Source: Fastidiosibacter lacustris (GTDB taxonomy: Bacteria > Pseudomonadota > Gammaproteobacteria > Francisellales > Francisellaceae). Taken from it: DNA of 32,000 nucleotides. The notes under the pieces were generated by a model. That model worked only from the letters and a program-made list of their open reading frames with translations, did no database searches and was not told where the DNA came from. The DNA is taken from positions 60,539-92,538 of the forward strand of contig NZ_QLIR01000006.1 of NCBI RefSeq assembly GCF_003428155.1, in the 5' to 3' direction. A program made the position numbers and the translations under genes. This document shows positions 6,386 to 32,000 of this stretch, one piece after another (within the stretch, counting starts at the first letter, position 1; the number at the start of each line of letters is the position of its first letter).

Positions 6386-7273
6386 GTGCTTACGTTTCAA
6401 GAAATTATATTTAAACTTCAACAATATTGGGCTGAAAAAGGTTGTATGATTGTTCAGCCTTTAGATATGGAGGTCGGTGCAGGCACCTTTCACCCGTCGA
6501 CTTTTTTGCGTGCAATTGGTCCTGAGAGCTGGAATGCAGCTTATGTTCAGCCATCACGCAGACCAACGGATGGTCGTTATGGTGACAATCCAAATCGTGG
6601 GCAGCATTATTATCAATTTCAAGTGGTAATGAAGCCTTCACCAAAGGATTTTCAGGAGTTGTATTTGGGGTCGTTGTGTCTATTGGGAATTGATCCTCTA
6701 GAACATGATATTCGTTTTGTAGAAGACAATTGGGAGTCTCCAACTCTCGGTGCTTGGGGTTTAGGTTGGGAAGTATGGGCAAATGGTATGGAAGTGACGC
6801 AATTTACCTATTTTCAGCAAGTTGGGGGGTTGGAGTGTAAACCCATAACTGGCGAGATCACTTATGGTCTTGAGCGTTTGGCAATGTATTTGCAAAACGT
6901 TGATAGCATGTATGATTTATTATGGGCAAACACTGCAATGGGACCGGTTTATTATCGTGATGTATTCCAGCAAAATGAGCGAGAAATGTCACAATATAAC
7001 TTCGAAGAAGCAGATGTAGAACATTTGTTTAATGAGTTTGAGTTTTTGGAGAAGGAAAGTGCGCGTCTTTTGGAAAAAGGTTTAGCATTACCTGCCTATG
7101 AGATGATGTTAAAGGCCTCACATGCATTTAATATGCTTGATGCTCGCCATGCCATTTCAGCTACTGAGCGACAGCGCTATATCTTGCGTGTGCGTGCTTT
7201 ATCAAGAGCTGTAGCCGAAGTGTATTATAGATCACGTGAAAAACTAGGGTTTCCTGTTTTACAAAATATTTAA
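6386..7273 (+). CDS. glyQ: Glycine--tRNA ligase alpha subunit
   Basis: Highly conserved GlyQ blocks are present: [85 protein letters not shown] and [14 protein letters not shown]. The apparent start is GTG. Confidence 0.95.
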
Positions 7274-7337
7274 ATCTTATCCCCATATATCGTCTTTTAT
7301 GGCATCATAGCGAGCAAATTCGCTAAAAGGGACAATT

Positions 7338-8924
7338 ATGTTCATTATCTTCTTAATTCTTGCATTTATAATCGGTTTGACAGTCGGGATCATTGTCATA
7401 AGACTAAGTTCAAAAGAGCTTAAGAACAAACTTAAAATACTTGAGGTTTCAATTGATGATTTAACCAGAACGAATCTGGAAACAGCAGCAGAGCTTCAGC
7501 AAAAAAAAGAACAAAACTTAATACTAAATACCGAGCATAAGCATTATCAAGAACACCAACAAAAACTCATTCAAGAGTTAAGCTTATTTAAGCAAAAATT
7601 TGAAATTAGAAATGATGAAGTCATAAAACTACAAAATAAATCAGCCACTGATGATGCTAAGGCAGATGCTTTAAATTCAGAAGTTTTACGTTTAAAGCAA
7701 GAATTAGTTGAGCTTAAAAAACAATATCAAGAAACGATTGAGCGTGCAAATAATAAACTAGAAGCACTCGGGACAGAAAAGTCAAATTTGCAAGCAGAAG
7801 TATCTAAGCTTGGTAAACATATAGAAGCACAAAGCCAAAGTGCACAAGAGAAAATAACACTATTGGAAAATGCCAAGACAAGCTTAACCGAGCAGTTTGA
7901 AAATTTAGCTAATCGCATTTTTGAAGAAAAAGGAGAGAAGTTTGTCAATCAGAATAAGCTTAATCTTGCGGAGATACTACAACCTTTCAAAAACGATATA
8001 ACTGAATTTAAAAAGAAAGTTGATGATGTATATGTGCATGAAGCAAAAGAGCGTGCTTCACTGCAAAAAGAAGTCAATAAATTATTTGAACTTAATCAAG
8101 AAATGAATAAAGAAGCGAAGAACCTCACCAAAGCTTTAAAAGGAGATAAAAAACTGCAAGGTGATTGGGGTGAGGTGATATTGGAACGTGTGCTTGAATC
8201 ATCAGGTTTACGTAAAAGTTACGAATATGAAGTCCAAAATAGCTATAAAGCACAAGATGAAGAGGATAAAGATGTGCATTTGCGACCTGACGTCATTGTT
8301 CATTTACCAGATGGCAAAGATGTAATTATTGATGCTAAAGTATCACTTGTTAGTTATGAAGCGTACACGCGTTCAGAGTCAGAAGCAATGCGTTTAGAGT
8401 GTTTGAAAAAACATATTGGGGCGATTCGACAGCATATTAATCTATTATCAGATAAAGGTTATGAAGCCTTGTCAAGGCTTAACTCTCTTGATTTTATTTT
8501 GATGTTTATGCCAATTGAAGCAGCTTTTGTTGTTGCATTTCAGCATGATGATGCGCTTTTCCACGAAGCATTTAAAAAACGGATTATCATTGTGACACCC
8601 ACAACTTTGCTTGCTACATTAGGTACGATTAGGAATACTTGGAACTATGAAAGATTAAATAAAAATGCAAGTGAAATTACAGAACGTGCTACTAAGATGC
8701 TTGATAAATTTAGAGGATTTGTTGAGGATATTGAGTCTTTAGGTAAGCAAATTGATAAGTCAAAGGAATGTTATGAGGGTGCACTCAATAAACTCAGCAA
8801 AGGACGAGGAAATTTGATTTCTCAGGCACTACAACTAGAAAACATGGGTGTTCAAATGAGAAAAACGTTGCCTCAAGATATATTGGATCAAGCAGAAGTA
8901 GAACCTAATAATGAAGATAAATAG
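7338..8924 (+). CDS. rmuC: DNA recombination protein RmuC
   Basis: An N-terminal TM anchor is followed by a long coiled-coil and a C-terminal RmuC nuclease-like region. That region contains GDWGEVILERVLESSGL, RPDVIVHLPDGKDVIIDAKVSL and FILMFMPIEAAF. Confidence 0.88.
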   Translation: MFIIFLILAFIIGLTVGIIVIRLSSKELKNKLKILEVSIDDLTRTNLETAAELQQKKEQNLILNTEHKHYQEHQQKLIQELSLFKQKFEIRNDEVIKLQNKSATDDAKADALNSEVLRLKQELVELKKQYQETIERANNKLEALGTEKSNLQAEVSKLGKHIEAQSQSAQEKITLLENAKTSLTEQFENLANRIFEEKGEKFVNQNKLNLAEILQPFKNDITEFKKKVDDVYVHEAKERASLQKEVNKLFELNQEMNKEAKNLTKALKGDKKLQGDWGEVILERVLESSGLRKSYEYEVQNSYKAQDEEDKDVHLRPDVIVHLPDGKDVIIDAKVSLVSYEAYTRSESEAMRLECLKKHIGAIRQHINLLSDKGYEALSRLNSLDFILMFMPIEAAFVVAFQHDDALFHEAFKKRIIIVTPTTLLATLGTIRNTWNYERLNKNASEITERATKMLDKFRGFVEDIESLGKQIDKSKECYEGALNKLSKGRGNLISQALQLENMGVQMRKTLPQDILDQAEVEPNNEDK

Positions 8925-10809
8925 CTTTATTGCACATCGAGGTGCTAATCAGATTGCACCTGAAAATACGATGCTTGCATTTAAAAAAGCTTATGATGCG
9001 GGATGTAAATGGATTGAGTTAGATGTACAGCTAAGTGCAGATGACGTTTTATTTATTTTTCATGACAACAATGCCAAAAAATTAACAGGCATAGATGCAG
9101 ATATTACTACTTGGCAGTGGCATAAGATTGAAAGTTTATCGGTGTTAAGCGATACATTTTATGACATACATGTTCAAGGATTAAATCGTATTCCAATGCT
9201 TAAGACATATCTTGATTGGATGGCTGAAATCACTGATTTGCATACTAATATTGAAGTGAAAGTAAGGCAGAGTTTTGATGAAGTTTATGAAGTGCGTTTG
9301 GTTCAAGCATTGTTAAAACTATTAGCAGAATATCCGCAACTACATGATAGGATTTTATTGTCGAGTTTTTCAGAATACGTATTGGGACTGTTAGCAGGTA
9401 GTAAATTAGGAATAGCACGTGAGTTTTTATTAGAAATAGAAGATTGGCAGGTTGCTCATCGTGATGTGTTTGACCGCATCAAACAATTATATGGTCTTTG
9501 GAATTGTGTTGCGCTTGGCATTAATAATGCTGTTTTAACTCTAGAGCGGATAGTGGAGCTTAAAGCAAGCTTTGGCAAGTTATTGACTTACTCAAATAGC
9601 AAACTTACAGATGAGGTTGTTTTACAAATGCTAAAAGAAGGTATAGATGGTATTTTTATTGATGACTTAAACCTAGTAGAAAAAACATACAATATTACAA
9701 AAAATATAGGTTTTTTAGCAACAGGAGATGAAATTACAACTGGCGATGTACTTAATACTAACACTCCTGAGCTTGCCCAAAGGTTATATTCAGAAGGATT
9801 TGAAGTAGGCATACATTTGGCTTGTTTTGATAATAAAGATAAGCTAAAAACTAGTTTGAAATTCTTGCTTAACGAGCATGCTATTGTGATCACAGTAGGT
9901 GGCTTAGGACCAACAGAGGATGATAAGACAGTAGAAGCAATTGCAGAAGTTTTTGAGCAGCAGTTGGTGTTTAATGAAGCATCGTGGCAGCGAATATATG
10001 AACGTGTGGCAAAGCGTTTTGGTAGTGTTCCTGAAAATAATAAAAAACAAGCTTATTTCCCGCAAGGTGCGCAAGTTTTGATCAATGAAGTCGGTACAGC
10101 AGATGGTTGTTATATTCATCAGGGGGATAAGCACCTATTTATGCTGCCAGGACCACCTCATGAATGTTTGCCAATGTTTGAAAAACTAGTATTACCCATT
10201 TTGAGTCAATTACAAAACAAACAAAAGCCAGCACATTTTAATTGGCAGTTGATAGGAGTTTCTGAAGCGCATATTGCATGTCAATTAAAGCCCTTGGCAG
10301 ATAAGTATCAAGTTGAGCTTGGATATAGAGCAGCTTATCCTTACCTTGAAGTTAAGCTACATTTAGCAAGTACAAGTGAAGGTACAATACAATTGGTAAA
10401 CGAAATAGATGCCCTTATTGAACCATTTGTGGTAAGTAGAAACAAACAGTCTGCCAGCAAGTTATTAAAGAGCTATTTACGTTCAGGAGAGGTTGTATTG
10501 ACTATGCAAAAAGACGTCACCAAGGGATACGTCTATAGTCATTTAGCAGAAATGATGCCTGTCTGTGAATCGCAACCTAGGTTATCTATTCAATTACAAA
10601 CGAATGGTATGACAATATTTTGGCAGAAAACGGATGCTCCAGTGGATGATCTGTCACTACTTGTTAAAGTTGAGGATCATGTCGATAAGCGTGAATTTGA
10701 GCAAGAGTTACATGTGCGTTTTAGTAATAAAGGCAAACATAGTCTTAATTTTGTTTATGAATGGATTTGTGCTCAGGTCGTGCGTTTAATTCAAAAGGAG
10801 ATGAAGTGA
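8911..10809 (+). CDS. Fusion protein: N-terminal glycerophosphodiester phosphodiesterase (GDPD) domain plus a C-terminal CinA-N/MoCF-biosynthesis (YfaY-like) domain and an uncharacterised tail
   Basis: aa 5-252 show GDPD hallmarks: [31 protein letters not shown] and GIDGIFIDD. aa 266-435 show CinA-N hallmarks: [31 protein letters not shown] and LPGPP. The frame is open for a continuous 632 aa. It overlaps the rmuC stop by 14 nt and the purE start by 1 nt. Confidence 0.75.
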
Positions 10810-29137: not shown

Positions 29138-29871
<734 letters not shown>

Positions 29872-30280
29872 ATTAAAGTCTGAGATTTTTTTGTCACATT
29901 GCTTATTTGGTTCCTAGCCTAGGTTGTAACCATTTGAAGATATTATGGAGTTGAAAATTCAAAAATTTTCCAACTTCGCGATGTAAATCACTTGATATAG
30001 CCATCAATTCAATTAAAGTTTCAATTTCCATATTCATCATAGCTTCACATTGTGAATTCATAATAAAGGGATTCTCACTTAATTAATAAAGCATTTCGGA
30101 AAAAAACTATTGCAATAGTATTCAATAATTGATACGCTTGATCGGAGTCATTATTAAGGTCACCCCCATACCTTAATGCTAAACACCCCTCCCTACATGA
30201 AAAGGATTTACTCAACTAGCAAGGAAATGACTCAAGTCCCATTATTACCTGAGAACTCTATCTTCTTTAAAGAAGATAAA

Positions 30281-30301
30281 AGGCATTATGCCTAATTTTT
30301 T
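30281..30301 (+). terminator. Right copy of the perfect 21-bp inverted repeat; hairpin plus T-run on the plus strand
   Basis: AGGCATTATGCCTAATTTTTT is the exact reverse complement of 29851-29871. A second hairpin, ATCTTCTTT/AAAGAAGAT (30260-30277), lies immediately before it. Confidence 0.45.
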
Positions 30302-30661
30302 GGATAACACAAGTTATTTTTTTGAAATTTATGTTTGTACAGGATGTTTTTTCATTTGAATAGCTTTATTGCACAAATTTTTCTATTCAATTAAAACCTG
30401 TTTATTGATGAATAAAGGAAATTAACCCATCACATCATGAATAAAGAAATCGACAACTTAAACATTACTGAAATAGATGCCTATCCCAAGATATTAAATA
30501 GACACCGATGCTATAAAACCACGATTCTGTATTTAGTAAATACTCATCGTTTAAGGTTAGACACCTTTTAATTGTAGAAGCATAGCTTGTAGCTGCCTTA
30601 CCCACCTTAATACTCTCCCCGGTAATCTTCGGTTCGCTCTCAGCTCCGCCATTTGCAACAT

Positions 30662-31303
30662 CTAACTATTAATAAAACTCGCTACTTCTTCATCATCGAT
30701 CTGCTCAAAACCAGCGGAATTTAACTCACTCTTTATTTTTTCTATTTGGTTGACTCTTCCGATTAATTGCATTGCTGCATGAGTCTCGCTATCGTCAAAA
30801 ACTCTGCAAAGCACAATATCGTTAGCGTTACTAAAAATAGAATTCACATTTTCACTTGAAATCCCATTTGTAGAATTATTAAAACAATCTAGTATGGATT
30901 GAGCGGATGTGTTTTTTGAGTTAAATACTAGAGATACATATCTATAGTGAGTAATTGAATTGAGAGGCAAACTTTTAATATCATTCGCCTCATTTTTTAC
31001 TAAAGAATATACGCCTGTAGACTCATTCCTTATTAATACATCTCCCTCGCTAAACCCTTCTTTCAGTTGTTTCTTTAGTTTCAACTCCTGAACTTTTGAA
31101 CCCGAAAAAGCTGTGCCAGTTGTTAGCCATTTAAAAACATATGGGAAAAAAGAGAGTAAAACAGGAAGAAAACTAGTCCATATTTTTGTCAGGCTATCGA
31201 TATCCCGCTGCAAGATAGTGATAGTAGCTAAACTACTATCGCCTGATTTTTTTGATTGTTCCCAAAGGTTTATACCTTCGTCGTACAAAAAAACTGGTTT
31301 CAT
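30662..31303 (-). CDS. Hypothetical protein; candidate cognate immunity protein for the upstream toxin tip
   Basis: 213-aa ORF whose ATG lies 2 nt after the upstream gene's TAA (TAA-AA-ATG), with an AGGA 6 nt upstream. One hydrophobic stretch spans aa 41-66 (IWTSFLPVLLSFFPYVFKWLTTGTAF). I recognise no family motif. Confidence 0.55.
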   Translation of the reverse strand: MKPVFLYDEGINLWEQSKKSGDSSLATITILQRDIDSLTKIWTSFLPVLLSFFPYVFKWLTTGTAFSGSKVQELKLKKQLKEGFSEGDVLIRNESTGVYSLVKNEANDIKSLPLNSITHYRYVSLVFNSKNTSAQSILDCFNNSTNGISSENVNSIFSNANDIVLCRVFDDSETHAAMQLIGRVNQIEKIKSELNSAGFEQIDDEEVASFINS

Positions 31304-31305
31304 TT

Positions 31306-32000
31306 TTAATCCTGCTTTATATAAGTATGGGAGTCAGCATTATTCTTTAAAGACTGCTTAATACCTTGAGCATTTCGCAGTTCACTGTTGAAATGAGAAC
31401 CATGATTACCAAATTTATGTCCTAACGTATGCTCACGAATCGTAGCTGTACTTTCATCAGCAATCTTAAATTCGTAAACTCGCCCTTCAACATGACCTTG
31501 TTGGTCTCTAATTTTTTCGTGATACGTATTGCTTGGTTGCTGGCTTCTAGGTATTCCAGCTTTTTCCTTGGCCTCTCTAAATGCCGCTTTTCTAAAGAGA
31601 GTGCTATCTGCCCCTTTTGGAACAGTAGTCACAAACTCACGTATTTTACCTGCTTCATGGCTAACTTGAGTTGTTTTCCCAGTTGCAACACTTGCCTTAA
31701 CATTCTCCACAACCATCTTTGGTACAGCAGCTTTAGCCAGAAACATTCCTCCTCTAACCGCTACTTTACCTATAGTGTAAGGAACTCCTATCACGGGGAT
31801 TGATACCCCTAAATACATAGATGCAGTAGTCCCTGCGTAATAAGCAGAAGCATTAACTATTCCATTTTCATAACCAAACCCTGTTAAGCCAAATGTCGTA
31901 TCATCCATAAAACCATTGGCAAAATGGGTGGCTAAACGTTTAATATAATCCGATAAATCTAGCCCTGTTTGTAGTTGAAGGCTATGTAACGGTCGACTAT
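31306..32000 (-). CDS. 3' part of a larger gene (5' end outside the window): polymorphic-toxin-like protein with a C-terminal HNH/EndoVII-fold (GH-E-like) nuclease module
   Basis: The minus-strand frame is open from the window edge to the TAA at 31306-31308, so the track's M at 31908 is internal. The last ~95 aa read AKEKAGIPRSQQP...GRVYEF...IREHTLGHKFGNHGSHFNSE. This matches the 'AGIPxSQ.P ... Y.F ... H..GH ... HFN' pattern I associate with GH-E-type HNH/EndoVII toxin domains. A Gly/hydrophobic segment and a VVENV motif precede it. Confidence 0.6.
   Translation of the reverse strand, partial: SRPLHSLQLQTGLDLSDYIKRLATHFANGFMDDTTFGLTGFGYENGIVNASAYYAGTTASMYLGVSIPVIGVPYTIGKVAVRGGMFLAKAAVPKMVVENVKASVATGKTTQVSHEAGKIREFVTTVPKGADSTLFRKAAFREAKEKAGIPRSQQPSNTYHEKIRDQQGHVEGRVYEFKIADESTATIREHTLGHKFGNHGSHFNSELRNAQGIKQSLKNNADSHTYIKQD

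Follow-up and report, generated by a model that had tools for sequence, protein, structure and literature searches.

Which toxin system does the gene that breaks off at the end of this stretch of Fastidiosibacter lacustris DNA belong to, and what is encoded by the small gene behind it? The window, that is the whole stretch of 32,000 nucleotides that was analyzed (positions 60,539 to 92,538 of contig NZ_QLIR01000006.1), ends within a minus-strand gene of which only the 3' part is present. A preliminary description, made from the letters alone, had taken this part for the tail of a large polymorphic toxin gene with a nuclease tip, coupled to a gene in the position where immunity genes sit. The computational analysis reported here indicates that this F. 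lacustris region probably encodes the C-terminal end of a polymorphic toxin of the Rhs family together with its immunity gene.

The truncated reading frame and its nuclease tip

Listing of the open reading frames (ORFs) and translation revealed 230 sense codons without a stop on the minus strand, from nt 31,998 to the TAA at 31,308–31,306. At a G+C content of about 36–40% such a length lies far beyond chance, by our own estimate and not by a computed test. The frame had been described as open from nt 32,000; it is open to the edge over these 230 codons, but its phase really starts two bases in, at nt 31,998, and the frame beginning at nt 32,000 itself contained many stops and was rejected as the coding frame. 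The resulting partial coding sequence (31,306..31,998, minus strand) encodes the C-terminal portion of a polymorphic toxin, the 5' end of the gene being cut off, and its 230-residue product is identical to the NCBI entry 'HNH/endonuclease VII fold putative polymorphic toxin, partial [Fastidiosibacter lacustris]'. Because NCBI's partial product sits on a contig of 92,538 bp, the edge of the window is also the end of the contig, and the gene therefore cannot be extended from this assembly.

The ORF listing contained a 200-residue ORF starting at M31 (ATG at nt 31,908). This start is internal, as the 30 preceding codons are open and their translation is identical to that of P0003, a paralogous F. 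lacustris protein annotated as 'RHS repeat-associated core domain-containing protein, partial'. No Shine-Dalgarno-like sequence was seen ahead of M31 upon inspection of the DNA. The ATG-initiated ORF is an artefact of the listing, and the earlier view that it represents the mere tail of a bigger reading frame was borne out by the open, paralog-identical codons and by the label 'partial' on the NCBI product. A metagenome scan retrieved many Rhs core ends, all of them generic, that match residues 2–40. A search of genome contigs with P0003 returned nothing but relatives of the tip of P0003, which is a different one, and generic core ends of Rhs proteins, with no Fastidiosibacter contig among them.

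The last 103 residues of the product (128–230, KGADSTL...YIKQD; 31,309..31,617, minus strand) make up the toxin tip. PF15657 (Tox-HNH-EHHH) was the only Pfam family to match the toxin product, with 38.1 bits at a gathering cut-off of 25 (E 2e-9) over residues 165–225, corresponding to profile positions 5–67 of 69. The tip had been predicted to be an HNH/EndoVII nuclease, and a match of this kind, here above the curated cut-off, had been named beforehand as a test of that prediction. Its assignment to the GH-E clade was not upheld: PF14410 was absent even at E ≤ 10 in the Pfam profile scan, and the clade is Tox-HNH-EHHH. The PF15657 domain was present in all eight non-self relatives that bear the tip, and E189, H190, H194, H202, F203, D222 and H224 were invariant in an alignment of eight sequences (A3). 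The signature of the Tox-EHHH clade is given as '[ED]H, H, H' by Zhang et al. (2012; PMC3482391, Table 2), and the invariance of E189–H190, H202 and H224 fits this signature.

One characterised member of the clade was found, TseI of Aeromonas dhakensis, a Rhs-family type VI secretion system (T6SS) effector whose C-terminal EHHH domain degrades plasmid DNA and which loses both toxicity and nuclease activity upon the substitutions H1497A and HFH(1507–1509)AAA (PMC7170923). The TseI tail was translated from the supplementary data of that paper. Its C-terminal fragment aligned pairwise with residues 124–179 of the toxin product (E 3e-7), and residue matches beyond this segment were aligned by hand. 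In this alignment H190 corresponds to TseI H1497, and H202-F-N204 corresponds to H1507-F-H1509. We accordingly view E189–H190 (31,429..31,434) as the [ED]H motif with H190 as predicted general base, H202–F203–N204 (31,387..31,395) as the putative counterpart of the essential HFH triplet of TseI, and H224 in the DSHTY motif (31,327..31,329; all on the minus strand), the third conserved histidine, as a probable metal ligand. The preliminary description had singled out His164 and His172, which are H194 and H202 in the present numbering: H202 is indeed the first residue matching the TseI HFH triplet, but TseI H1497 aligns with H190 and not with H194. By analogy with TseI, the tip would act as a DNase by means of these catalytic residues. 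An AF2 model of the tip had a mean pLDDT of 82.9, and the search by sequence for solved structures gave none for the toxin.

The likeness to TseI goes further than the common Pfam family. Both tips have an A(F/S)R.AKE.AGIPRS helix, a VYEF strand, the catalytic histidine and the HF(N/H) triplet, a Rhs core end with DPxGL precedes the TseI tip and is seen for F. lacustris in the paralog P0003, and the immunity gene is tightly coupled to the toxin stop. However, the nuclease of TseI starts about 15 residues past DPLGL, whereas in F. lacustris a linker of about 177 residues including a hydrophobic stretch would intervene. The F. lacustris tip furthermore has a two-residue insertion between the catalytic histidine and HF(N/H), and N204 replaces TseI H1509. 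The TseI immunity protein TsiI, of 154–155 residues, is without similarity to the 213-residue protein encoded behind the F. lacustris toxin, and tseI is encoded with hcp-vgrG-tecI, whereas no such genes were seen at the F. lacustris locus.

The coupled gene and the toxin-immunity cassette

The ORF for this 213-residue protein (30,662..31,303, minus strand), the predicted cognate immunity protein, begins 2 nt past the toxin stop, and 6 nt ahead of its ATG the last toxin codons contain an AGGA. No NCBIfam model matched the protein, and in Pfam only a sub-threshold match to AP205_coat was obtained; none of the 40 family members, comprising the protein itself and 39 relatives, matched any Pfam model. 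An exhaustive profile search among 1.84 billion representative proteins gave a family size of about 60 cluster representatives (50% identity). The close homologs, from Sinobacterium, Pseudoalteromonas luteoviolacea and metagenomes, are 67–69% identical and all exactly 213 residues long.

Wherever the context was readable, members of the family (homologs 36–69% identical) were located directly after EHHH tips. This was the case on Rhs scaffolds at the loci L049-52 (immunity identity 39%, E 2e-53) and L056-58 (36%), on a CdiA-type scaffold at L053/54 (67%) and on a short TARA contig that carries such a tip (L059, 69%). At a P. luteoviolacea locus (L055, 69%), the last 28 residues of a toxin are followed by an intact immunity gene, a situation of orphan immunity. 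Because the linkage to EHHH tips is conserved across unrelated scaffolds, the standard comparative signature, we read the 213-residue ORF as an immunity gene, and it is very likely the cognate one. The coupled ORF had been placed in the position of an immunity gene from the window alone, and its conservation beside homologous tips in unrelated loci lends weight to that placement.

The surviving 28 toxin residues of the P. luteoviolacea locus (9813–10642; FNSELRNAQGIKQSLKNNADSHTYIKQD) are identical at the protein level to the tail of the window's toxin, with 12 synonymous codon differences. The orphan immunity gene there lies about 6 kb downstream of a 3312-residue SpvB/RHS gene, with insertion sequence fragments between the two.

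Kinship of the 213-residue protein with TsiI was rejected, as TsiI gave a BLASTP E value of 7.9 and scored below zero with the profile of the family. A transmembrane anchor was likewise rejected, as peak hydropathy was 1.27 and the L049 homolog has charged residues at this place. The search by sequence for solved structures gave none for the immunity family. Protection through direct binding would be expected from the TseI–TsiI pair and from what is known of such families. Compared with the Tox-EHHH clade as a whole (PMC3482391), the toxin shares the motif [ED]H, H, H, and the clade's occurrence on RHS and FilH scaffolds with several export routes is mirrored by the cassette, which occurs on Rhs (L049, L056) and CdiA-type (L053) proteins. 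The immunity families listed for the clade, in contrast, are Imm8 and Imm50; both were rejected for the 213-residue family, which showed no sequence relation to them and whose 40 members, as stated above, match no Pfam model.

The extent of the cassette was obtained from a blastn comparison with the Sinobacterium caligoides locus (L053). The DNA is 78.6% identical over 963 nt (30,657..31,619, minus strand), from the K128 codon (nt 31,619) to 5 nt beyond the immunity stop (30,657). The tips are 92% identical (95/103) and the immunity proteins 67%, both of the latter having 213 residues, with the same gene order and spacing. By contrast, the S. caligoides scaffold is a CdiA-type protein of at least 3354 residues with two-partner secretion (TPS) and Fil_haemagg domains, and nothing upstream of K128 is related. 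Identity at third codon positions was 66% for the toxin and 61% for the immunity gene (window 30,665–31,617 versus L053 9687–10639). In the toxin tip, 8 non-synonymous and 31 synonymous codon differences were counted, as compared to 70 and 53, respectively, in the immunity gene. This pattern suggests strong purifying selection on the nuclease, with an inhibitor that is drifting or diversifying. Tip and immunity gene together form a discrete, horizontally shared cassette that moves between toxin scaffolds and bacterial orders.

The junction, the scaffold and competing explanations

Upstream of the cassette lies a pre-toxin linker, residues 1–127 (31,618..31,998, minus strand), which is homologous to P0003 through REFVTTV (residue 126). 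Its residues 1–46 (31,861..31,998, minus strand) are identical at the protein level to residues 91–136 of P0003 and are probably the repeat at which the assembly broke. The stretch shared with P0003 at the contig end measures about 140 nt, judged from protein identity, and has the length expected to remain where a short-read assembly breaks off at a repeat. A published comparison of F. lacustris with 'Ca. Nebulobacter yamunensis' reports that repeats are found mostly at contig ends in this genome (PMC9837558). The Gly/Ala/aromatic-rich hydrophobic stretch of the linker (residues 36–93; 31,720..31,893, minus strand), within which P0003 has a 9-residue deletion, reaches a peak Kyte-Doolittle value of 1.53 and is not a clear transmembrane helix. 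Past the equivalent of residue 126, P0003 carries an unrelated tip. Two comparisons thus place the junction between conserved and variable parts at residues 126–128, namely the end of the homology to P0003 and the start of the Sinobacterium blastn match at the K128 codon.

In the preliminary description the junction had been sought at VVENV (residues 96–100; 31,699..31,713, minus strand), which was compared with the VENN motif. All three strings quoted there are exact, FGLTGFGY...AKAAVP being residues 36–93, VVENV residues 96–100 and REAKEKAGIPRSQQP...HFNSE part of the tip, but the role given to VVENV does not hold. The paralog reads IAESV at this place and its homology runs 26 residues beyond it, no PT-VENN domain was matched in the toxin product by Pfam even at E ≤ 10, and the cassette starts at K128, 28 residues downstream. 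The similarity of VVENV to VENN is a chance resemblance.

The linker was not found outside F. lacustris, as in the protein search and the metagenome scan only the window product and P0003 carried it. In two relatives, P0002 and P0007, DPxG and the tip are joined by a hydrophobic pre-toxin linker that matches Ntox10 (PF15520) over the ~90 positions at the N-terminus of the model, yet the toxin that follows is EHHH. This suggests that the N-terminal part of Ntox10 is a shared, reusable pre-toxin segment and not a toxin. The window linker itself gave no match to Ntox10.

The scaffold of the gene can be approached through P0003. This protein passes the NCBIfam model TIGR03696 (Rhs_assc_core) with 33.2 bits at a cut-off of 32.5. 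It contains NNPVNVIDPTGL, the DPTGL end of an Rhs core, 50 residues ahead of the equivalent of the window start, and the string ...YAYASNNPVNVIDPTGL is placed 50 residues before that same point. Because a paralog with the same linker bears an Rhs core end, the Rhs delivery type becomes inferable for the present gene, whose scaffold would by this analogy be of the Rhs type. The preliminary description had held that the delivery type cannot be told; by way of P0003 it may now be given as probably Rhs. Homologous tips were also found on other Rhs proteins, with DUF6531 and RHS repeats in L048, with RHS repeats, core end and tip in L049, and with RHS repeat, RHS core and EHHH tip in L056. In the published F. 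lacustris / Nebulobacter comparison, wapA_3 and rhsC were named by Prokka among the pseudogenes.

Two observations concern the architecture of these proteins. The tip of P0003 itself (residues ~212–311, KPCVDCG...ADHKNPL...CPTCSARQG) had no Pfam match even at E ≤ 10 and has relatives in at least 40 genomes, one of them 92% identical in Halochromatium glycolicum; its CxxC, DH, CxxC, Q pattern resembles the motif of the NGO1392-like HNH clade of Zhang et al. (PMC3482391), a resemblance of motif only. In L049 (24-2105) and P0006, Rhs core end and EHHH tip form a separate ORF of about 300 residues with a signal-peptide-like hydrophobic start where the Rhs-associated core begins, and in L049 a separate RHS-repeat ORF lies ahead, its stop 16 nt before the ORF of core end and tip. 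The rhs gene may have been split or disrupted in these cases, or its architecture may be a different one.

On the basis of these data we consider it likely that the region is the C-terminal end of an Rhs-family toxin with its immunity gene, working as follows. The missing upstream part would end in an Rhs core with a self-cleaving DPxGL about 50 residues before the window start, as in the paralog, and the part within the window would supply the 127-residue species-specific linker and then the 103-residue His-Me-finger (HNH/EndoVII) DNase. The Rhs shell would enclose the C-terminal region, and an aspartyl autoprotease would cut after DPxGL, freeing about 280 residues of linker and nuclease. Once delivered into a neighbouring bacterium, the nuclease would degrade DNA with an active site composed of E189–H190, H202-F-N204 and H224, while in the cytoplasm of the producer the translationally coupled 213-residue protein would bind and block it.

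Several points weigh against this reading. The Rhs core and repeats of this gene lie outside the window and the contig, and the scaffold is taken from a single paralog whose Rhs score barely passes (33.2 versus 32.5). The same cassette is found on a CdiA-type protein (TPS and Fil_haemagg) in Sinobacterium, so that the delivery type cannot be read from the tip by itself. Foldseek with the AF2 model of the tip retrieved no solved His-Me finger structure, and the structure model of the immunity protein was unusable, with a pLDDT of 44.5 from a 5-sequence alignment. The T6SS is the default delivery of Gram-negative Rhs toxins. For F. lacustris it found no mention in the literature examined on the organism, and Table S1 of PMC9837558 (TXSScan, KAAS, Prokka) lists a type I secretion system, Sec-SRP, type IV pili and three types of type IV secretion system, and neither a T6SS nor a type V secretion system (T5SS); the table covers F. 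lacustris and 'Ca. Nebulobacter yamunensis', and absence from it is weak evidence. T6SS delivery is thus unsupported in F. lacustris.

Orphan rhs-CT/immunity modules and C-terminal displacement occur in Enterobacteria. By comparison, the present locus could be such an orphan, a displaced tip and immunity cassette that has no full-length gene ahead of it but only a stub of linker or core, kept for immunity and tip-swapping recombination. The likeness lies in the variable tips on an upstream segment shared between paralogs, in a mosaic linker, and in the decayed tip with intact immunity gene of P. luteoviolacea. The module abuts housekeeping genes (adk, rplI), and the assembly break falls inside the shared linker. 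The mosaic is seen in 'Ca. Nebulobacter yamunensis', which has an average nucleotide identity (ANI) of 99.38% to F. lacustris (PMC9837558) and in which the same module makes up an isolated 1503-bp contig (JAMBMW), 99% identical to window 30,233–31,735. Most of its differences fall within the first ~80 nt, in the linker, where it reads TQASH as the paralog P0003 does. This mosaic points to recombination among linker-bearing paralogs. The frame, however, runs on to the edge without meeting a stop or a convincing start, and the two F. lacustris tips belong to separate large contigs, of 92.5 and 247 kb, where each points into sequence that is unique. This placement of the two tips is somewhat better explained by two rhs genes whose near-identical cores have collapsed than by one orphan array, and we regard an orphan module as unlikely. 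It bears on the earlier description in one respect: the gene tail is cut by the sequence edge, as had been stated, but 'large' is unproven, an orphan tip being possible.

A CdiA-type toxin of two-partner secretion (T5SS), with the VVENV region as pre-toxin junction, is very unlikely. It would explain that the closest tip (92%), with its 67%-identical immunity protein, ends the TPS/Fil_haemagg protein of at least 3354 residues in Sinobacterium caligoides. The homology to that protein, however, sets in only at K128, and what lies upstream matches only a paralog with an Rhs core end. Moreover, no PT-VENN match was obtained, no VENN was seen in the Sinobacterium protein over its last 500 residues, and no T5SS is listed for the genome (PMC9837558 Table S1).

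Finally, a complete, stand-alone small toxin starting at ATG 31,908 is suggested by the listed 200-residue ORF and can practically be dismissed in view of the 30 open upstream codons, 100% protein-identical to the paralog, of an NCBI product that is called partial, and of the ribosome-binding site that was not seen before this ATG.

Surroundings of the module and meaning of the immunity family

The other ORFs scanned encode housekeeping functions, comprising glyQ, rmuC, purE, ribosomal protein operons, ferrochelatase, rpsR, rplI and adk. The preliminary description had called the toxin locus the only accessory one of the window, and this agrees with the scan, which covered part of the window's ORFs. 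Neither the toxin gene nor the immunity gene was found a second time within the window. About 370 nt past the immunity stop, a terminator-like palindrome AGGCATAATGCCT with a T-rich tail (30,281..30,293, minus strand) marks a possible end of the transcription unit. It belongs to one arm of a 51-nt inverted repeat, 78% complementary (29,825–29,875 / 30,277–30,327), of which each arm has the palindrome AGGCATAATGCCT beside a T or A run. The arms enclose about 400 nt that look non-coding and are located between the toxin module and adk. The near-identical 'Ca. Nebulobacter' contig ends within this interval, at window nt 30,233 and some 45 nt past the arm on the module side, and its last ~16 nt contain several mismatches. 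The inverted repeat could be a pair of bidirectional terminators, or else a small element that was inserted. The intergenic region 29,810–30,661 matched no Rfam family and had no similarity to any compared locus.

Two further features lie elsewhere in the window. In the region 6386–8924, glyQ, for the alpha subunit of glycyl-tRNA synthetase, is directly followed by rmuC and not by glyS. At 8911–10,809, a 632-residue ORF unites a glycerophosphodiester phosphodiesterase (residues 9–253) with a MoCF_biosynth/CinA-like domain (268–432), an unusual fusion.

The toxin is a routine polymorphic-toxin tip that had already been flagged by automatic public annotation. The immunity family, in contrast, a small one for which neither Pfam nor NCBIfam has a model, is tightly linked to EHHH nucleases and is a candidate for catalogues of toxins and immunity proteins. 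We tentatively propose that the 213-residue protein founds an undescribed, EHHH-specific immunity family, with a 963-nt cassette that occurs across Rhs and CdiA scaffolds and gammaproteobacterial orders and an inhibitor that diverges much faster than the toxin, and that the Rhs toxins are maybe exported by an uncharacterised route. The family would be a third, unrelated type of inhibitor for the EHHH nuclease clade, and the locus would be a clear example of a cassette, with edges precise to the nucleotide, that is exchanged between scaffolds of the Rhs and the CdiA type. At an ANI of 99.38%, F. lacustris hardly differs from an obligate endosymbiont of a ciliate, and a T6SS is listed for neither genome (PMC9837558). 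With no T6SS listed, how and against whom F. lacustris uses Rhs toxins becomes a testable question; if the proposal is true, the Rhs toxins of a host reported without a T6SS might leave the cell by an export route of their own that is as yet uncharacterised.

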